Assembly (NCBI GenBank): GCA_041674285.1 | Contig: JBAYVZ010000005.1 | Span: forward strand, 5,176 to 69,175 | Direction of reading: 5' to 3' | DNA: 64,000 bases | Origin: Minisyncoccota bacterium | GTDB lineage: Bacteria; Patescibacteriota; Minisyncoccia; Phycocordibacterales; UBA9973 | In this document: positions 1,780 to 58,396 of the stretch, one piece after another | Numbering within the stretch: the stretch's first letter is position 1 | Layout of the letters: every line of letters begins with the position of its first letter | Position numbers and translations under genes: made by a program | Notes under the pieces: generated by a model | The model's input: only the letters and a program-made list of their open reading frames with translations | Database searches by the model: none | What the model was told of the DNA's origin: nothing

Positions 1780-1896
1780 TCCCGTTAGAGATGCGTTGTT
1801 GTAAATTTACGGGATAGTGTAAAATAAGAAGAGGAACATATTATTAACAATAATTAACAAGATACGGAAGTCTTTGGACTTCCTATCTCTAACGGG
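1780..1896 (+). repeat. start-codon-abutting structured element (family 1), copy 1
   Basis: 5' arm TCCCGTTAGAGAT (1780-1792) and 3' arm ATCTCTAACGGG (1885-1896). Inner hairpin GATACGGAAGTC-TTTG-GACTTCCTATC. ATG follows at 1897. Confidence 0.85.
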
Positions 1897-4420: not shown

Positions 4421-4546
4421 TATAAATTCGTCGCACGTGTATCTTTTTTAAGGGCTTCTGCAGCGCGACTGGCGCGAAGCCTGAGTAAATTTTTAGCAAA
4501 AAATTTACGTACCTTAAAAAAGATATACGAAGAAAGAATTTATAAA
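4421..4546 (-). repeat. palindromic intergenic element (family 2), copy B (inverted relative to A and C)
   Basis: Its reverse complement aligns almost base for base with copy C (…CTTCGTATATCTTTTTTAAGGTACGTAAATTTTTTGCTAAAAATTTACTCAGGCTTCGCGCCAGTCGCGCTGCAGAAGCCC…). Ends 9 nt before the kbl ATG. Confidence 0.8.
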
Positions 4547-5797: not shown

Positions 5798-7633
5798 TTA
5801 TTCTACTGTTACGCTCTTTGCTAAATTACGAGGCTTGTCTACATCTGCTCCACGTAGTACTGCCGTATGATATGCCAGTAGCTGTAGTGGTATCACAGAT
5901 AGTATCGGTATCCACTCATCAGGAACATTTGGAATCTCGACAATGTGATCAAAAATATTTTTCAATTCTTCGTTGCCACTGCGTACTATACCGATAGTCA
6001 GCGCTCCACGAGCTTTGACCTCTTGGACATTTGATATTACTTTTTCAATCAATGCATTATTTGTAGCGACTACAATAACAGGGAAATCTTTTTCTACTAG
6101 TGCTATAGGACCATGCTTCATCTCTGCTGCTGGATAACCCTCAGCATGGATATAAGAAATCTCTTTTAATTTCAACGCCCCCTCGAGTGCGACAGGGAAT
6201 AGTACTCCGCGCCCCAGGAACAATGCATTATCTTTTTCTTTTAAAATCTCGGCGATCTTTTTAACCTTTCCTTCTTCTTTCAATACTTGCTCTACCTTGT
6301 CTCCGATAGTAGACAATTCTTGAACCAAGAATACATATTCATCATGGCCTAGAGTGTCGCGATCTTTTGCTAGTAGTAGAGAGAGTAGTGATAGTATCAC
6401 AGCCTGACCAGTAAAAGCTTTTGTCGATGCTACTCCGATCTCGGGACCGACGTGGATATATGAACCTGCGTCAGTGATACGTGCGATAGATGAGCCGACT
6501 ACATTTGATATACCATATGTCATAGCACCGGATTCACGAGCGATCTGTAGTGCAGCTAGTGTATCTGCTGTCTCTCCGGATTGTGATATAGCTATTACGA
6601 TATCGTCTTTGTAAATTATCGGATTGCGATAACGGAACTCTGATGCATACTCTACTTCTACTGGAATCCTAGCTAGAGTCTCTATCAGATATTCACCGAC
6701 GAGCCCTGCGATCCAAGATGTGCCACAAGCAGTGATGATGATCCTCTTTGCATTTTTAAATTTATCAGCCATCTCTTCTATTCCACGTAGATGCACAGTA
6801 TTATCGGGCAGTATGTGGCCACGGAGTGCGTCGTGTATAGTACGAGCCTGCTCAAAAATTTCTTTTTGCATATAGTGATCGTATCCACCTTTTTCCAGCA
6901 TCTCAGCTTCGATATTCAGCTCCTCTATGAATGGAGTATGAGCTACACCATCGATAGACTTTACATAGAATTCACCATTACGCATTACTTTTGCCATATG
7001 ACCATCTTCTAGGTAGATCACACTCTTTGTGTACTCTACGATAGGGGACGCATCCGAAGCGATAAAAAATTCTTTTTCTCCGATGCCGATCACGAGTGGG
7101 CTACCCTTGCGTGCTACGATCAATGTATCGGGATCTTTTTCGTCTAGCACTACGATCGCATAAGCTCCTACTACCTGAGATAGGGCCTCGCGAACAGCCT
7201 CTTCGGTACTTAGATTGTCCTTTATTTTTACTTTTTCTATCAGACGGGCAAGGACTTCTGTATCAGTGTCACTCTTGAAAGTATCTCCATCTTTGAGGAG
7301 GGCAGTCTTTAAAGTAAGATAATTTTCTATAATACCGTTATGTATCAAGGCTATAGACCCAGATTCTGAGAGGTGGGGGTGAGCATTGCGATCCTCTGGT
7401 GCACCATGGGTGGCCCAGCGAGTATGACCTATGCCTATATTCCCAGCAGGATTATGGTCTTTTGCATACTTAAAAAGCTCGGCAACCTTGCCTTTCTTCT
7501 TGAAAACATTCATTTTTCCATCTAGAAGTGCAACTCCAGCTGAATCATACCCTCTATATTCGAGCCTTTCTAAACCCTTTATAATAATGGGAAAGGCTTC
7601 TCTTTTTCCTATGTATCCGATTATTCCACACAT
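5798..7633 (-). CDS. glmS: glutamine--fructose-6-phosphate aminotransferase
   Basis: MCGIIGYIG Ntn-amidotransferase N-terminus (Cys must follow the initiator Met, so the start is trimmed from 7660), two SIS domains, C-terminal ...KPRNLAKSVTVE. Confidence 0.95.
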   Translation of the reverse strand: MCGIIGYIGKREAFPIIIKGLERLEYRGYDSAGVALLDGKMNVFKKKGKVAELFKYAKDHNPAGNIGIGHTRWATHGAPEDRNAHPHLSESGSIALIHNGIIENYLTLKTALLKDGDTFKSDTDTEVLARLIEKVKIKDNLSTEEAVREALSQVVGAYAIVVLDEKDPDTLIVARKGSPLVIGIGEKEFFIASDASPIVEYTKSVIYLEDGHMAKVMRNGEFYVKSIDGVAHTPFIEELNIEAEMLEKGGYDHYMQKEIFEQARTIHDALRGHILPDNTVHLRGIEEMADKFKNAKRIIITACGTSWIAGLVGEYLIETLARIPVEVEYASEFRYRNPIIYKDDIVIAISQSGETADTLAALQIARESGAMTYGISNVVGSSIARITDAGSYIHVGPEIGVASTKAFTGQAVILSLLSLLLAKDRDTLGHDEYVFLVQELSTIGDKVEQVLKEEGKVKKIAEILKEKDNALFLGRGVLFPVALEGALKLKEISYIHAEGYPAAEMKHGPIALVEKDFPVIVVATNNALIEKVISNVQEVKARGALTIGIVRSGNEELKNIFDHIVEIPNVPDEWIPILSVIPLQLLAYHTAVLRGADVDKPRNLAKSVTVE

Positions 7634-7935: not shown

Positions 7936-8054
7936 TCCCGTTAGAAGTCATATATGTCATTCAAGCTACGGAGACTGTTTAAATAAATTATTTATATTCG
8001 ATATTATTAGTTAAATTATGTACGATAATCTAAAGATTATCTACTTCTAACGGG
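7936..8054 (+). repeat. start-codon-abutting structured element (family 1), copy 2
   Basis: Arms CCCGTTAGAAGT (7937-7948) / ACTTCTAACGGG (8043-8054). Inner hairpin GATAATC-TAAA-GATTATC. ATG at 8055. Confidence 0.8.
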
Positions 8055-23269: not shown

Positions 23270-23388
23270 TCCCGTTAGAGATTCGCTTGTTATATTTCTA
23301 ATTTGAGGTGATTTGCAAAATGAATGTCGTATTATTTACTATATATTAACAAAGGGCGGTAATGTAAACATTACCTATCTCTAACGGG
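23270..23388 (+). repeat. start-codon-abutting structured element (family 1), copy 4
   Basis: Arms TCCCGTTAGAGAT (23270-23282) / ATCTCTAACGGGA (23377-23389). Inner hairpin GGTAATGT-AAA-CATTACC. ATG at 23389. Confidence 0.85.
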
Positions 23389-34701: not shown

Positions 34702-34821
34702 ATCCCGTTAGAGATGTGTTGTTAATAAAATAAAATATAAGTTAAAATTAAGTATAAAATAATATTACATAATAAAAATTAATAAGATACGGAAATGTAA
34801 ACATTTCCTATCTCTAATGGG
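34702..34821 (+). repeat. start-codon-abutting structured element (family 1), copy 5
   Basis: Arms ATCCCGTTAGAGAT (34702-34715) / ATCTCTAATGGGAT (34810-34823, one G-U wobble). Inner hairpin GATACGGAAATGT-AAA-CATTTCCTATC. The upstream stop lies 11 nt before the arm. Confidence 0.85.
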
Positions 34822-44807: not shown

Positions 44808-44924
44808 CCCATTAGAGATAGGAAATGCTTACATTTCCGTTTCTTTTTAATTTAAATTAATAAATACAACCTTATTTATAAGCAAACCTACATAAAAAAC
44901 ACAAACAACATATCTCTAACGGGA
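44808..44924 (-). repeat. start-codon-abutting structured element (family 1), copy 8
   Basis: Read in minus sense: arms TCCCGTTAGAGAT / ATCTCTAATGGG (G-U wobble). Inner hairpin ACGGAAATG-TAAG-CATTTCCT. The rnpA TAG stop (44916-44918) lies inside the 5' arm. Confidence 0.85.
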
Positions 44925-45251
44925 CAAGTATAATCCTGCTTTTTTAAATAAATAGACAATATTTTCAGATATTTGATCATTTTCAGCTTTTAAAGCCTCC
45001 TTTTTAAAGAAAAGAGCGCCGATAAAAGGCTTTGCCAGTAATGGGCCAGCCATACGATAACCCTTTCTCCTGAGAGAATTCCTTAAAACAGCTGTTTTTG
45101 CAACGCTTTTCGGGGCAACTACAGCAAAATGAACCACACCATCAGTGGAGGGTATATACCGGAAAGTAAAAAGAGGGCTTGAGACCATTTTTCCTTCTTT
45201 CATAATGGCTTCAAAAACCCCCTTATTAACACGATGCTTTTTGGAAAGCAT
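44916..45251 (-). CDS. rnpA: ribonuclease P protein component
   Basis: 111 aa basic protein (FAVVAPKSVAKTAVLRNSLRRKGYR), immediately downstream of rpmH. Confidence 0.85.
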   Translation of the reverse strand: MLSKKHRVNKGVFEAIMKEGKMVSSPLFTFRYIPSTDGVVHFAVVAPKSVAKTAVLRNSLRRKGYRMAGPLLAKPFIGALFFKKEALKAENDQISENIVYLFKKAGLYLSR

Positions 45252-45252
45252 G

Positions 45253-45393
45253 TTATTTCTTTATAGATACACTAGCGCGACCTTTTTGGCGTCGGCGGGC
45301 AGTGACCTTTCGGCCATTTTTTGTCTTTGTACGTACAAGAAAACCGTGTGTTTTAGCTCTTTTACGTTTGTTTGGTTGATATGTTTGAGACAT
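45253..45393 (-). CDS. rpmH: 50S ribosomal protein L34
   Basis: Below the ORF-track cutoff. Minus-strand translation gives [46 protein letters not shown]. The stop is 1 nt before the rnpA ATG. Confidence 0.9.
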
Positions 45394-45438
45394 AATGTCT
45401 AATATATACTATAATGGTGCATTATGCAACCCATAAAG

Positions 45439-45447
45439 TTATCCACA
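45439..45447 (+). promoter_or_regulatory. perfect DnaA box upstream of dnaA
   Basis: TTATCCACA at 45439-45447 in the rpmH-dnaA divergent spacer. Confidence 0.7.
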
Positions 45448-45515
45448 CGATATACACAGGATTGCACACAATTCAAACAGGACGATTATAAATCTTAACT
45501 AGTATAATAGGAACT

Positions 45516-46868
45516 ATGGTATCAGATACAAAAAAATTATGGGAAAGCTGTTTGGCGGAAATCGAATTATCCATTTCAAAAGCAAATTTTACAACCTGGT
45601 TTAAAAATACACAGATAGTAAAAGAAGAGGAGGGAGTACTATTTATAGGAGTACCAAATGAATTCGTAAAAGACTGGTTGAATAATAAATTTCACAAGCT
45701 AATCCTTAAAACTCTAATGAATTATGAGGATAGTGTACGCAATATAGAATACATAATCACAAAACACGAAGTAGTAAAACCAAAAACAGAAAATGAACAA
45801 GCCCCTATATCTATAAACAAAGAACTGCCACTAGCTGATCTCTATGTAAACAAGGACGACAACTTAAATCCTAAATATACATTCAATAATTTTATTGTTG
45901 GACCATTCAACGAGCTTGCATATGCAGTTTCCCAAGCTATCATCACCACACCAGGGGAAACATATAATCCATTCTTTGTATATGGAGGTACAGGTCTTGG
46001 TAAGACACATATGATCCAATCGATAGGGAATAGTATCAAGAATAAATTTCCAAATAAAAAGATTTATTATGTGAGTCTTGAAAAATTTGCTATTGACTAC
46101 ATAAACTCAATTCAAAACAAAAATCCAAATGGATTTAAAGAGAAGTATAGAAAATACGATGTGATAATTATGGATGACATCCAATTCATATCAGGAAAAG
46201 AAAAGACTCAAGAAGAATTATTCCATTTGTTCAATATATTCCACGAAAACAATAAGCAAATTGTTTTTTCTTCAGATAAACATCCAAACTTTATCCAAGG
46301 ATTAGAAGAACGTCTACAATCTAGATTCGCTTCTGGTATGACAGTACAGATAACAGAGCCTGACTATGAATCACGCGTAGCGATCATCAAAGCTAAGCTA
46401 CAGAAGACAAATATAATAGTGGATGAACCAGTCATCTCCTACCTTGCAGAGGTACTAGAGGGTAATATACGAGAATTGGAGGGTAGTTTAAATACAATCA
46501 TCTGCCAATCTCAACTCAAAGATAAATCACTCTCTTTAAATGAGACAAAAAATTTAATTAAAAATAATATCCGACCAAAGAAAAATGTAGCTATCAAAGA
46601 TATTATTAAAATAATTGCTGATTATTACAATATCCCCGAAGCTCACGTATATGAGAAGACCAGGAGAAAGGAGATAGTCCAAGCTCGCCAAGTAGCGATG
46701 TACCTACTCCGAGAAGATTTCAATATTTCATACCCACTAATAGGTCAAAAGTTTGGGGGTAGGGATCACACCACAGTCATACACTCACACCTCAAAATAA
46801 AAGAAGATTTAAAGACGAATCCAAGCCTACTCCAAGAGATAGAGAGGATCAGAATCATGTTCAAATAG
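45516..46868 (+). CDS. dnaA: chromosomal replication initiator protein DnaA
   Basis: 450 aa, Walker A GGTGLGKTH, a sensor region and a C-terminal DNA-binding helix RQVAMYLLRE. TATAAT (45503-45508) lies 7 nt before the ATG. Confidence 0.95.
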   Translation: MVSDTKKLWESCLAEIELSISKANFTTWFKNTQIVKEEEGVLFIGVPNEFVKDWLNNKFHKLILKTLMNYEDSVRNIEYIITKHEVVKPKTENEQAPISINKELPLADLYVNKDDNLNPKYTFNNFIVGPFNELAYAVSQAIITTPGETYNPFFVYGGTGLGKTHMIQSIGNSIKNKFPNKKIYYVSLEKFAIDYINSIQNKNPNGFKEKYRKYDVIIMDDIQFISGKEKTQEELFHLFNIFHENNKQIVFSSDKHPNFIQGLEERLQSRFASGMTVQITEPDYESRVAIIKAKLQKTNIIVDEPVISYLAEVLEGNIRELEGSLNTIICQSQLKDKSLSLNETKNLIKNNIRPKKNVAIKDIIKIIADYYNIPEAHVYEKTRRKEIVQARQVAMYLLREDFNISYPLIGQKFGGRDHTTVIHSHLKIKEDLKTNPSLLQEIERIRIMFK

Positions 46869-54025: not shown

Positions 54026-54511
54026 TCAAATCTGTGGAAATCTTTCGCAGGCAAAACAGGTCAATCCTATGGCTATGGCGTCTAGCTCGTCGTCTGATTT
54101 TATGGTTCTCTCTATCTTGATCAATTTAGGTACCATACTCATCACTGCACTCTTGTCTGACTTGCCGTAGCCCGTCACAGCTATCTTGATCTGAGGGGGA
54201 GTGTATTCAAATACTTGTAGCCCGTACTTCATGGCAGAGTATATGATCACCCCACGAGCTTCGGCTACGCCCATGACGGTCTTTTGGTTGTTTGTAAAAA
54301 AAAGTTTTTCTATGGCTAATGCTTTTGGTTTGTATTCTTTTGATATACTTTCTATTTTTTCACCTATCAGTAGTATTCTCTCATAAAAGGGGAGCTTTGC
54401 ACTTGTCTTGAAGCACTCTGAATACAATAGCGTCTCCTTGCTCTTGCCGTCCTTTTCTATTATCGCGATTCCGATTCTCTCGAATCCCGGGTCTATGCCA
54501 AGTATGATCAT
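54026..54511 (-). CDS. ruvC: crossover junction endodeoxyribonuclease RuvC
   Basis: MIILGIDPGFERIGIAIIEK N-terminus. Start trimmed from 54556 because TACAAT lies 6 nt before this ATG. Ends with TGA. Confidence 0.88.
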   Translation of the reverse strand: MIILGIDPGFERIGIAIIEKDGKSKETLLYSECFKTSAKLPFYERILLIGEKIESISKEYKPKALAIEKLFFTNNQKTVMGVAEARGVIIYSAMKYGLQVFEYTPPQIKIAVTGYGKSDKSAVMSMVPKLIKIERTIKSDDELDAIAIGLTCFACERFPQI

Positions 54512-54615
54512 AGTATGATTGTATTTTGTATGGAAGTGTTTTGCAAATTTTGCCAAAATAGTTTTTTTGTGTTATCTTGAAGAAAAAAACTTTCCACAAT
54601 TTAAATTTTTAACTC

Positions 54616-55221: not shown

Positions 55222-55255
55222 AAAAAACAGCAAATACAAAGTTTGCTGTTTTTTT
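55222..55255. terminator. bidirectional hairpin terminator
   Basis: AAAAAACAGCAAA-TACAAAG-TTTGCTGTTTTTTT, overlapping the end of ruvB. Confidence 0.7.
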
Positions 55256-56249
55256 ATATCTCTTCTGGAAAATCAAACCCCAAGTGTGCGTAACCCTTTT
55301 TTGTGACAGTACGCCCACGTGCCCCACGCTCTATTAATCCGAGCTGTATGAGGTAGGGCTCGATGACTTCCTCTATGGTAGCCTCCTCTTCACTAGTAGC
55401 AGCAGCGATAGTCTTGAGACCTACTGGACCACCGTTGAATTTTGAAATTATGATCTCTAGTACTCTACGGTCAGAAGCAGAGAGTCCTAGCTCGTCAATT
55501 TCTAGTAGTGCCAGAGCCTTCTTTACCGCATCCTTGTCCATCATAGTCTTGTGGACTTGGGCATAGTCACGGCAACGCTTCAAAAAGTAGTTTGCTGTGC
55601 GGGGTGTGAATCGTGCACGCTTTGCGATCTCGTCTAGTGCGCCATCATCTAGTGTGACACCTAGAATCTTTGCAGAGCGAGCGAGAATTTTTTTTATCTC
55701 TTCATGATTGTAGAATTCTAGTCGGAATACTCCACCAGAGAATCGTGATCGGAGGGGGGATGATAGTAGTGCGATACGAGTAGTCGCAGCGATCAATGTG
55801 AATGGTGGTAGCTCGAGCTGGATAGTACGAGCAGATGGTCCCTTGCCGATGATGATGTCGAGCACTCCAGACTCCATAGCAGGGTACAGGACCTCCTCTA
55901 CCATTTTATTTAATCTGTGTATCTCATCGATAAATACTATATCTCCAGGTGCGAGATTTGTTAGGATGGATGCGAGGTCACCGACCTTTTCTATTGCAGG
56001 ACCGGAGGTAATCTTGATCTGCCTCCTGGTCTCGTGCGCTACGAGGTGAGCGAGAGTGGTCTTGCCTAGTCCTGGAGGACCGTAGAATAGTATATGCTCT
56101 GCTGGGTGAGAGCGCTCTTCGGCTGCCTGGAGGAGAATTTTAAGGTTGGCCTTGATGTTTTCCTGACCAATGTATTCATCCCACACACTTGGACGGAGTG
56201 TCTGGTCTAAAAAGCCTTCATCTTTGGTTGTATCTTTGGGACTTGACAT
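55254..56249 (-). CDS. ruvB: Holliday junction branch migration helicase RuvB
   Basis: AAA+ Walker A GPPGLGKTTLA, Walker B IVFIDEIHR and a C-terminal winged helix. Confidence 0.95.
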   Translation of the reverse strand: MSSPKDTTKDEGFLDQTLRPSVWDEYIGQENIKANLKILLQAAEERSHPAEHILFYGPPGLGKTTLAHLVAHETRRQIKITSGPAIEKVGDLASILTNLAPGDIVFIDEIHRLNKMVEEVLYPAMESGVLDIIIGKGPSARTIQLELPPFTLIAATTRIALLSSPLRSRFSGGVFRLEFYNHEEIKKILARSAKILGVTLDDGALDEIAKRARFTPRTANYFLKRCRDYAQVHKTMMDKDAVKKALALLEIDELGLSASDRRVLEIIISKFNGGPVGLKTIAAATSEEEATIEEVIEPYLIQLGLIERGARGRTVTKKGYAHLGFDFPEEI

Positions 56250-56271
56250 TATTTTTTGTTTATGATATACT
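56243..56271 (+). promoter_or_regulatory. consensus sigma70 promoter TTGACA-17-TATACT with TGn
   Basis: TTGACA 56243-56248 (overlapping the ruvB start on the other strand), 17 nt, then TGaTATACT ending at 56271. Confidence 0.65.
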
Positions 56272-56317
56272 CTGTGTAGATTCAGTTACAACAGTATTAT
56301 AGCATCAAAGCAAAGAG

Positions 56318-56460
56318 GACATAAATCTCTAAGCAATCAGCCCCGTGCTCTATGTGTGCGCGTAGGACATTCTGGTTTATTTTTAATATTACTGGGGTTA
56401 TCCTTCAACCACTCATTACTTTAGGACTTGTTTTTAAAGGATTGTTTAGAGATTTATGTC
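56318..56460 (+). ncRNA. candidate structured small RNA or leader (unknown family)
   Basis: 21-bp closing helix GACATAAATCTCTAAGCAATC / GATTGTTTAGAGATTTATGTC. Its one G-T pair is compatible only with a plus-strand RNA. The helix can extend with G-U pairs, is followed by TTTTTCT, and lies about 40 nt downstream of a consensus promoter. Confidence 0.5.
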
Positions 56461-56503
56461 TTTTTCTATGGGTAGATGTTTTGTTTTGTGTTAAAATAAA
56501 AAT

Positions 56504-56659
56504 ATGAAAATCAATCTTCATATACCTGTAAATTTTCCATTTGCAGCAGTAGTCATCACTATTATCGGGGCAATGTTTACATTTTATATATATAAAGTCG
56601 CAGATGGGGCTATCACTCAGGTCGCATCCAATGGAATAGTCTCTACTCCTATGGAATAA
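56504..56659 (+). CDS. possible small (51 aa) membrane protein
   Basis: MKINLHIPVNFPFAAVVITIIGAMFTFYIYKV... Below the ORF-track cutoff and followed by a terminator. May equally be non-coding. Confidence 0.3.
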   Translation: MKINLHIPVNFPFAAVVITIIGAMFTFYIYKVADGAITQVASNGIVSTPME

Positions 56660-56694
56660 AAAAACAATCCTAATTTTATTAGGATTGTTTTTTT
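56660..56694. terminator. bidirectional hairpin terminator
   Basis: AAAACAATCCTAAT-TTT-ATTAGGATTGTTTT with flanking A and T runs. Confidence 0.7.
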
Positions 56695-56695
56695 A

Positions 56696-58396
56696 TTACT
56701 CTGCGTAGAAATCTACTACACTTGCAACTTCTTCAAAAGATGTAGCACCGGTGAGGATCTTTACCACACCATCTTCTTCCATATTTAGATTGCCCTGATT
56801 GCTGGCCACCTCTTTAATCTCGCGTTCACTAGGATTGTTTGGGATTATGGCTTCGATTTCTGCATTGTTGTGCACAGCTTCGAATATTCCCATGCGACCC
56901 TTGTATCCAGTAAAGTTACATTTTTCGCAACCGACGGGTTCATATGTTTTGAATGGATTTGTCATGTCGACTCCGTAATTTGCCAAATCTTTTTTGTGAG
57001 CCACTGCTCCGGCTATCACTTTATCGATTATAATTTTTTCACTGTCTGAAATTTGTTTTTCTTTTTTACATTCTACGCACAGCTTGCGCACTAGACGCTG
57101 AGCGATAGATAGAGATAGTGCAGATACTAATATCTTTGGATTTACCTCTAGGTCTATCAGGCGGGGGATTACTCCAGCGGCATTGTTCGTGTGTAGTGTC
57201 GAGAATACAAGGTGACCAGTGAGGGCTGATTCGACTGCAATCTTTGCAGTCTCGCTGTCACGGATTTCTCCGACCATGATCACATCCGGGTCCTGGCGGA
57301 GTGCTGATCGTAGGCCCTCTAGGAATGTATAGCCCTTTTCTGTATCTACCTGCGTCTGCGTGATGCCGGGTAGATGATATTCTACTGGGTCCTCGATCGT
57401 GATGATCTTTATCTCGCTAGAATATATCTTTTGTAGGAATGAGTATAGTGTAGTAGTCTTTCCAGATCCAGTAGGTCCAGTCAGGAGGATCAGTCCATTT
57501 GGTTTTTTGATCTCGCGCATGAATACTTCAAAAAGTTTTGGCTCGATACCCATATCCTCGAGCTCTACTCTGATAGATTTTGGATTGAGTAGTCTCATCA
57601 CTATGGATTCACCGTATGCCCCAGGGATGAGTGATACACGGAGAGATATCTCATCGCCATTTATCACTACACTGAATCTGCCGTCTTGGGCTATAGAGTG
57701 AGATGTGATTTTTAATCCAGAGAGTAATTTGATTCTAGAATTTATGAACTTGTGGATCTCGATAGGGATGTCGGCTACCTCTTGGAGGATACCGTCTAGT
57801 CTGTATCGTAGGCGAACTATATTCTCCTCTGGCTCGATGTGTACGTCAGAAGCATTCACTGCGATAGCTCCGGCCATGATCACCTCGAGCATGTGTGATG
57901 TAGTGTGGGTCTTTTCTTTTTCTATCTTTTCAATCTCGGCTTTGATGTCTACTATGTTTTTTATATTACCGGCGATTTTTTCTAGCACGTCACCAGAGAT
58001 ATCGATACTACCTGCTTTTGATTCTGATGCATAGGAGATCTCGGCATACCTATCCCAGGCCTTTTCTAGTGATGCAGTAGAAGCCATATAGAAATGTGGT
58101 TCATATCCATGAGAAGTAAAATATTCTGTAGCCATCTGTATGTTGTCTGGCTGAGGAGACTTGATTGCTATGTGGAGATTCTTGCCTAGTATTTTGAAAG
58201 GAGCCAATTCTTTCTCCCTGGCTTCTGCCTCGGGGATAGTACGTAGGGCATCGTTCTCGATAGGGAGGTTTGCTAGGTTTACATGAGGCATATTGTACTT
58301 TGATTCTGCTAGCATAGCCACTAGATTCTCTTCCTCTTGTTTATGTATATCTGCCAAGTCTTTATTCTCTTTTTCGTCATCAAAAATGATAGTCAT
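56696..58396 (-). CDS. pilB: GspE/PilB-family type II/IV secretion (type IV pilus assembly) ATPase
   Basis: Walker A GPTGSGKTTTLYS, VGEIRD, His-box TGHLVFSTLHTN, and a tetracysteine motif CVECKK...CEKCNFTGYKGRMGIFE. Confidence 0.9.
   Translation of the reverse strand: MTIIFDDEKENKDLADIHKQEEENLVAMLAESKYNMPHVNLANLPIENDALRTIPEAEAREKELAPFKILGKNLHIAIKSPQPDNIQMATEYFTSHGYEPHFYMASTASLEKAWDRYAEISYASESKAGSIDISGDVLEKIAGNIKNIVDIKAEIEKIEKEKTHTTSHMLEVIMAGAIAVNASDVHIEPEENIVRLRYRLDGILQEVADIPIEIHKFINSRIKLLSGLKITSHSIAQDGRFSVVINGDEISLRVSLIPGAYGESIVMRLLNPKSIRVELEDMGIEPKLFEVFMREIKKPNGLILLTGPTGSGKTTTLYSFLQKIYSSEIKIITIEDPVEYHLPGITQTQVDTEKGYTFLEGLRSALRQDPDVIMVGEIRDSETAKIAVESALTGHLVFSTLHTNNAAGVIPRLIDLEVNPKILVSALSLSIAQRLVRKLCVECKKEKQISDSEKIIIDKVIAGAVAHKKDLANYGVDMTNPFKTYEPVGCEKCNFTGYKGRMGIFEAVHNNAEIEAIIPNNPSEREIKEVASNQGNLNMEEDGVVKILTGATSFEEVASVVDFYAE

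Follow-up and report, generated by a model that had tools for sequence, protein, structure and literature searches.

The window analysed in this study is a stretch of 64,000 nucleotides (nt) from a Minisyncoccota bacterium (assembly GCA_041674285.1, contig JBAYVZ010000005.1, positions 5,176 to 69,175 of the forward strand). Judged by RuvB, its nearest genomes are metagenome-assembled genomes (MAGs) of Nomurabacteria. Between ruvB, which encodes the recombination motor RuvB, and pilB, which encodes a PilB/T2SSE ATPase, lies a spacer with a strong predicted promoter, a long inverted repeat followed by a U-run, and a short open reading frame (ORF) of 51 amino acids, orf51. From the letters of this spacer a sequence-only reading had proposed, as the first of several options, a promoter-driven, stand-alone small RNA (sRNA) ending at the U-run. 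The proposal is supported by the conservation of the element, by covariation, by strand and by a conserved promoter, and the putative gene represents an apparently undescribed, well-supported family of structured sRNAs of Nomurabacteria-type bacteria of the candidate phyla radiation (CPR). The coordinates of all features are compiled in Table 1.

For comparison, a set of 80 species-level genomes with the closest RuvB relatives (72-91% amino-acid identity) was assembled. BLAST comparisons of the homologous spacers, which the sequence-only reading had suggested, clearly demonstrated that the element is conserved in relatives: in most of the 80 genomes, the sequence immediately upstream of ruvB is 70-85% identical to window positions 56312-56467, and the flanking spacer is not conserved in this set. 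A covariance model, R1, was built from the sRNA and used to scan the fetched loci as well as the window. Exactly one sense copy was detected in 78 of the 80 ruvB loci, with scores from 170 down to 35 bits, and the two loci lacking a copy are contigs of approximately 1.5 kb that carry no DNA upstream of ruvB. The window likewise contains one copy. Searching it for further copies of the 21-nt helix arm, another suggestion made earlier, yielded none at three or fewer mismatches (0.01 expected) and thus no sign of a miniature inverted-repeat transposable element (MITE).

As a second line of evidence, metagenomes were scanned independently of ruvB, using the two helix arms of the sRNA alone as the pattern. 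At least 120 contigs of up to 357 kb were obtained, each with one copy, and many of them originate from 0.1-0.2 um fractions of Hainich groundwater. Among the matches listed, a divergent ruvB was present 55-303 nt from the RNA in all contigs with at least 300 nt of upstream sequence (112 of 112), and this linkage held down to approximately 62-64% RuvB identity to the window. A scan of viral contigs for the RNA pattern gave 0 matches. A search for RuvB homologues that was aimed at remoter lineages returned only relatives of at least 85% identity. The link between the sRNA and ruvB is unusually rigid.

The ends of the conserved region are held together by a helix. The 21-nt arm at 56318-56338 pairs with 56440-56460, including a single G-T pair at 56333/56445, and TTTTTCT follows immediately at 56461-56467. 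An inverted-repeat search widened this closing helix, designated P1, to 26 nt (56313-56338 with 56440-56465), in agreement with the earlier description of a 21-bp helix that could be extended. Folding of the plus strand resulted in -54.1 kcal/mol (z = -4.25) compared to -41.9 kcal/mol (z = -2.8) for the minus strand. RNAalifold, applied to a MAFFT alignment of 62 sequences, predicted 48 pairs, 31 of which showed compensatory changes, and the refined structure of 55 pairs is a four-way junction formed by helices P1 to P4. Pairing statistics for this structure were obtained on an alignment that was not fitted to it. Paired cells amounted to 94.1%, compared to 84.3% in column shuffles and 39-54% with slid partners; changes on both sides were found in 37 of the 55 pairs, and none of 500 shuffles reached any of the observed measures. 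Compensatory changes are present in every helix, and the top mutual-information pairs are helix pairs. Beyond the nested helices, mutual information gave nothing convincing in terms of pseudoknots or tertiary covariation.

P1 consists of 26 pairs with 98.1% of the cells paired and double changes in 15 pairs. For the small hairpin P2, 82% of the cells are paired and three of four pairs show compensatory changes, which in P4 were found in all eight pairs. The linkers of the junction are 0 and 2 nt long. Among the most distant members, compensated changes extend to the inner part of P1, and the P3 core AGGA...CUGG / ACUGG...UCCUU is kept even there. The U-run behind the 3' arm is also conserved, as alignment columns 172-177 contain T in 49-61 of the 62 sequences. 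Two interior features that had been pointed out from the sequence alone did not fare as well: the letters of a GCCCC/GGGGT pairing are present but unused, with GCCCC located in the P2 hairpin and GGGGU paired inside P3, and the direct repeat of TAGGAC has its second copy in the variable tip of P4, where it is not conserved.

The alignment also reveals the strand. G-U and U-G combinations occupy 476 cells of the paired columns, A-C and C-A combinations 32, and this excess indicates that the plus strand is the RNA, transcribed away from ruvB. Together with the conserved U-run and the G-U pair at 56333/56445, which is conserved too, this bears out the earlier claim of a plus-strand RNA. There is no conserved ORF within the RNA (median longest ORF, 25 amino acids). 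Downstream, pilB is the usual but not the constant neighbour; in most loci the RNA ends at the stop codon of the convergent pilB, in some cases overlapping it. A same-strand ORF downstream of the RNA, where present, differs from genome to genome. The conserved core comprises approximately 155 nt and the predicted transcript approximately 190 nt. With a predicted promoter, a covarying structure, a predicted terminator, no coding capacity and no apparent cis target, the element would qualify as a stand-alone structured sRNA gene.

The predicted promoter of the sRNA matches the consensus in 11 of 12 positions, carries the TG extension and is the sole strong sigma-70-like site in the region 55900-56900. 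Its TTGACA overlaps the ATG of ruvB, and its coordinates agree with those of the consensus promoter described earlier at the ruvB start. Transcription of the sRNA is predicted to start near 56278. The block TTGACAT-N17-TGnTATACT is kept in close relatives, in which a second conserved block, ATTATAGCAT, was found. This is the reverse complement of TGCTATAAT / ATGCTATAAT and represents an extended -10 directed toward ruvB, for which a start near 56289 is predicted. In the window, the transcripts of the sRNA and of ruvB would thus overlap head-on by approximately 12 nt. An extended -10 motif (TGnTAnnnT) on the plus strand of the spacer was detected in 184 of 184 loci and one on the minus strand in 175 of 184. 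In 172 of 184 loci the two motifs face each other, and the 5' ends predicted from them overlap by 11 nt in the median; approximately 0.3 such -10 motifs per strand and spacer are estimated by chance from base composition. In many of the more distant genomes a second -10 (TAGTATAAT) is located nearer to P1, and the distance between the -10 and P1 ranges from approximately 7 to approximately 130 nt among the loci. Conservation of the RNA starts at P1. The 5' leader is thus variable, and the mature RNA probably starts at or near P1.

Only in the locus L040 is the RNA not adjacent to ruvB; it is located approximately 2 kb downstream. There, positions 8727-9042 comprise the sRNA, its TTGACA-17-TGCTACACT promoter and what is left, in degenerate form, of the ruvB -10 block; the sRNA adjoins a gene for a PD40-repeat protein that is unrelated to ruvB. 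Directly on the ruvB start codon of L040 lies a copy of another repeat, family 1 (5840-5955), which is described below. This arrangement suggests that a rearrangement split the sRNA-ruvB pair. The sRNA promoter stays with the RNA in L040 although it is away from ruvB, and the ruvB start codon therefore cannot explain the conservation of the promoter block there.

Table 1. Features of the sRNA gene, of its neighbourhood and of other regions of the window (positions of the window)
Feature	Position	Strand	Remarks
Predicted sRNA promoter	56243-56271	plus	-35 TTGACA 56243-56248; 17-nt spacer; extended -10 TGaTATACT 56263-56271
Predicted 5' leader of primary transcript	56278-56312	plus	outside conserved fold; length varies; possibly trimmed
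Predicted ruvB promoter	56296-56304	minus	extended -10 TGCTATAAT; plus-strand reading ATTATAGCA
P1, 5' arm	56313-56338	plus	26 nt; inner 15 nt AAUCUCUAAGCAAUC nearly invariant in subclade, outer 11 covary
P2	56339-56349	plus	small hairpin of 3-4 bp directly on P1; loop variable
P3	56352-56416	plus	long irregular arm; apical loop 56377-56390 variable in length and sequence
P3a	56352-56358/56410-56416	plus	covaries
P3b	56364-56367/56401-56404	plus	invariant AGGA/UCCU
P3c	56369-56376/56391-56398	plus	conserved tandem G-U pairs
Junction UA and P4 hairpin	56417-56439	plus	UA within nearly invariant UUAC motif, 56415-56419
P4	56419-56439	plus	base CUUUA/UAAAG 56419-56423/56435-56439 conserved; tip variable
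P1, 3' arm, and U-run	56440-56467	plus	arm 56440-56465; U-run 56461-56467; predicted intrinsic terminator and 3' end
ruvC	54026-54556		
ruvB	55254-56249	minus	ATG read as CAT at 56247-56249
orf51	56504-56659	plus	hydrophobic; start 37 nt past the U-run of the sRNA
Bidirectional terminator	56655-56697		perfect, 20 nt; follows orf51, common to pilB
pilB	56696-58396	minus	PilB/T2SSE ATPase
Family-1 copy	1781-1896		
Family-1 copy	7937-8054		
Family-1 copy	11619-11735		
Family-1 copy	23271-23388		
Family-1 copy	34704-34821		
Family-1 copy	37118-37232		
Family-1 copy	43584-43699	minus	
Family-1 copy	44808-44923		
jag/khpB	43116-43583	minus	
yidC	43716-44459	minus	
dnaA	45516-46868	plus	

Comparison with known RNA families yielded no match. 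Rfam 15, searched at gathering score with all 64 kb of the window, assigned no family, and with the threshold set to E <= 10 nothing relevant was obtained for a 701-nt query, a 176-nt query or the distant homologue L034. The Rfam scan had been suggested by the sequence-only reading, and its outcome is consistent with an undescribed family. ARAGORN detected no tRNA or tmRNA in the window. Our literature searches turned up neither a paper on a regulatory or housekeeping sRNA of CPR/Patescibacteria nor one on a ruvB-associated RNA motif. For the signal recognition particle (SRP) RNA (4.5S; helix 8 with GNRA tetraloop) there was no Rfam match, and the apical loop of P3 is variable. No Rfam msr match indicative of a retron non-coding RNA was found in the window; a reverse transcriptase is not encoded at the adjacent positions, which are taken by ruvB and pilB, and no direct search for one was made in other loci.

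Several known RNAs nevertheless resemble the ruvB-side RNA in part. Bacterial Y RNAs have a long stem joining both ends, a multi-branched module and a U-rich 3' tail, and they act by protein binding. The ruvB-side RNA shares the end-paired stem, the branched top and the U-rich 3' tail with the YrlA type; in contrast, it matches no Y RNA/YrlA family of Rfam and lacks conserved hairpin loops similar to T- or D-loops, the loops of P2 and P4 being variable. The gene rsr, which encodes Ro60, was not noted among the annotated neighbours in the window and L040, where no search was aimed at it, and the screen of the remaining loci covered ruvB, ruvC, pilB and ruvA. Like raiA, OLE and ROOL at their discovery, the RNA combines a complex covarying fold and restriction to one lineage with no known function or ligand, but it is smaller, shows no Rfam match to them and occurs in CPR/Patescibacteria with a fixed divergent partner gene. 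The genomic arrangement resembles oxyS-oxyR and gcvB-gcvA, in which an sRNA also diverges from a fixed protein gene with overlapping promoter regions. In those pairs, however, the neighbour is a transcription factor rather than the recombination motor RuvB, and the promoters at the ruvB locus are arranged face-to-face with a predicted 5' overlap.

Taking these data together, we consider it reasonably probable that the element is a gene of its own, present in one copy and encoding a structured sRNA, likely a trans-acting RNA of the ribonucleoprotein (RNP) type, with P1 as terminator and with a promoter coupled to that of ruvB. Transcription of this gene would proceed along the plus strand, in the direction away from ruvB, and the RNA would fold into the four-way junction. 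Its 26-bp P1 would join the RNA ends and, together with the U-run, serve as both terminator and stabilising clamp; as a perfect duplex of this length it is possibly also a processing site for RNase III. The folded RNA would then act in trans as a stable and abundant protein-binding RNA, either in an RNP or as a sponge, and would be recognised by its shape. Protein binding is suggested because invariant positions concentrate in the helices, in the junction and in P3's internal loops rather than in an exposed seed, a pattern that resembles neither a base-pairing regulator nor a leader. Combined with a single copy, presence throughout the lineage and a strong predicted promoter, this pattern points to recognition by shape, most plausibly by a protein.

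With regard to ruvB, occupation of the strong sRNA promoter would exclude polymerase from the facing ruvB promoter. As the two promoters are face-to-face, polymerase probably occupies only one of them at a time, and such exclusive occupancy would couple the expression of sRNA and ruvB inversely. The interlocked promoters probably also account for the fixed synteny of the sRNA and ruvB, which are almost never separated. That the RNA in L040 keeps its promoter approximately 2 kb from ruvB counts for an action in trans.

Several points weigh against an independent trans-acting RNA gene. All statements on the transcript, including where it ends and how abundant it is, are predictions. Protein binding derives solely from the conservation pattern and from analogy with 6S, Y and SRP RNAs, and a perfect 26-bp helix enclosing approximately 100 nt would be an unusual terminator. 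The single-copy status refers to the window, the fetched loci and contigs of up to 357 kb. Finally, the near-absolute linkage to ruvB could mean that the locus matters mainly in cis.

The overall architecture also resembles that of 6S RNA (SsrS). An RNA of this kind would mimic an open promoter and sequester the polymerase holoenzyme; P1 and P3 would then represent the downstream and upstream duplexes, and the junction strands with P2 and P4 would serve as the bubble. The size of approximately 155 nt is in line with this idea. Like 6S RNA, the ruvB-side RNA would be a stand-alone, single-copy and strongly promoted RNA in the range of approximately 150-200 nt, as widespread in its lineage as a housekeeping RNA, and its 5' end pairs with its 3' end over the length of a long closing helix. 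A central junction lies between two arms of approximately 25 bp here, similar to the arms around the central non-helical region of 6S RNA, and our literature searches gave no paper that names 6S RNA together with the candidate phyla radiation. Yet neither the 176-nt query nor the distant homologue matched an Rfam 6S model at E <= 10. At its centre the RNA has, instead of an open bubble, a four-way junction that is tightly stacked, with linkers of zero nucleotides and with covariation in P2 and P4; no G-C clamps are present beside the junction, and P1 is perfectly paired, with an inner 15 bp conserved in sequence and none of the bulges that closing stems of 6S RNAs usually show. We therefore regard a 6S-like function as unlikely.

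The facing promoters allow for the explanation that the locus acts mainly in cis, to which we likewise attach a small probability. Plus-strand transcription would then throttle the facing ruvB promoter or produce a short antisense RNA to the 5' end of ruvB, P1 would be a terminator between pilB and ruvB for transcription from either side, and the RNA would have no function in trans. The high frequency of facing -10 motifs and their short predicted overlap, the complete ruvB linkage in the informative metagenome contigs and the pilB stop codon that abuts or overlaps the 3' end of the RNA in many loci are all compatible with such a role, as are the A-rich 5' and U-run 3' flanks, which are usual for bidirectional terminators. 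On the other hand, an element acting in cis leaves unexplained why the interior of approximately 100 nt (P2 to P4) is maintained by compensatory changes and why the internal loops of P3 are invariant. The helix formed by a minus-strand transcript would carry several A-C mismatches, and the RNA of L040 persists at its distance from ruvB beside another gene.

A trans-acting sRNA that regulates mRNAs by base pairing through a conserved single-stranded segment would fit the stand-alone anatomy with predicted terminator and U-tail. Short unpaired stretches are indeed conserved, namely UUAC and the internal loops of P3, and the RNA adjoins ruvB; some bacterial sRNAs adjoin genes related to their function. 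Nevertheless, most of the invariant positions are paired or located in internal loops. Pairing of the sRNA interior with the cognate ruvB translation-initiation region was predicted at -21.6 kcal/mol and does not exceed that of shuffled and non-cognate controls (-21.8 and -23.0 kcal/mol), and the octamer common to the leaders of family 1 does not covary across genomes. Regulation by base pairing thus appears rather improbable.

The four-way geometry together with the near-absolute ruvB linkage, and only these, gave rise to a further idea. An RNA four-way junction shaped like a Holliday junction could be a decoy or regulator of RuvA, RuvB or RuvC, or an RNA cofactor of recombination or repair, with the interlocked promoters setting the ratio of RNA to RuvB. 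We consider this very unlikely. A lack of ruvA, which would have favoured a Holliday-junction mimic, gives no support, since a ruvA homologue exists in the clade; it is located at 11273-11827 of L190 and is the only one detected in approximately 200 fetched neighbourhoods.

A riboswitch or leader of a downstream gene, as the sequence-only reading had envisaged for orf51, is highly improbable. orf51 does start closely behind the U-run on the same strand, but among the related loci compared it was found only in the window genome, it matches no Pfam family, and elsewhere the convergent pilB mostly follows, or otherwise unrelated neighbours. In addition, the 26-bp P1 leaves no plausible switching partner, and Rfam revealed no riboswitch family. 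orf51 may be a recent insertion between sRNA and pilB.

The remaining proposal, in which the element would be a MITE or another mobile inverted repeat with ties to family 1, drew on the terminal inverted repeats and on the octamer ATCTCTAA/TTAGAGAT common to the family-1 arms, and it has a negligible chance of being correct, given one copy per window, locus and contig, a syntenic position that is fixed down to approximately 62% RuvB identity to the window among the matches listed, compensatory substitutions that extend into the interior helices, family-1 arms that differ between genomes with identical sRNA P1, an R1 model that matches no family-1 copy, and the lack of viral copies of the sRNA pattern.

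The octamer itself is shared with family-1 arms in the window genome, as had been noted, but the presumed link proved to be a coincidence. ATCTCTAA is over-represented in the window (14 copies versus 5.2 expected) because a separate repeat of approximately 125 nt, family 1, is present there in eight copies. In other genomes whose sRNA helix is identical, the arms of family 1 have sequences such as TAGAAGT, TAGAAGC and TAGAAAT, and the link between the sRNA and family 1 was therefore rejected.

Family 1 has the form [ATGGA]TCCCGT-N7...N7-ACGGG[ATGGA] with a length of approximately 115-125 nt. It also occurs in L002, L003, L040, L050, L130, L148, L164, L165 and L193. The terminal inverted repeats are CCCGT+N7 ... 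N7+ACGGG, and the arms vary between copies and genomes yet stay complementary. Most copies are flanked by a direct duplication of the start codon plus approximately 2 nt, for example ATGGA...ATGGA, and in most copies the downstream ORF begins with the ATG that directly follows the 3' arm; no ATG comes after the copy at 44808-44923. Among the products of the ORFs behind family 1 are an NYN RNase and KhpB/Jag, and in L040 the ORF is ruvB. Family 1 looks like a mobile or regulatory hairpin associated with start codons.

Further observations concern the surroundings. The region 43116-46868 represents the replication-origin neighbourhood, with jag/khpB, yidC and dnaA. In its spacer of approximately 1 kb lie a G+C-rich inverted repeat that is perfect over 19 nt (44494-44512 with 44580-44598) and the family-1 copy without a following ATG. 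Other intergenic inverted repeats of the window enclose 58-92 nt, for example at 4421-4544 and 13029-13168. The clade lacks a ruvA-ruvB operon, unlike the usual ruvAB arrangement of bacteria.

CPR/Patescibacteria are ultra-small bacteria with genomes of approximately 0.7 Mb. Selection on the structure of the RNA across the Nomurabacteria-like clade argues that it is likely important to these organisms, and it stands out by its very strong predicted promoter and its fixed partner gene. The covariance model R1 can be used to annotate the family. The RNA represents a concrete and easily testable target in the search for a 6S-like or Y-like RNP in these bacteria and for the control of ruvB, the expression of which may be coupled to that of the sRNA by the facing promoters.

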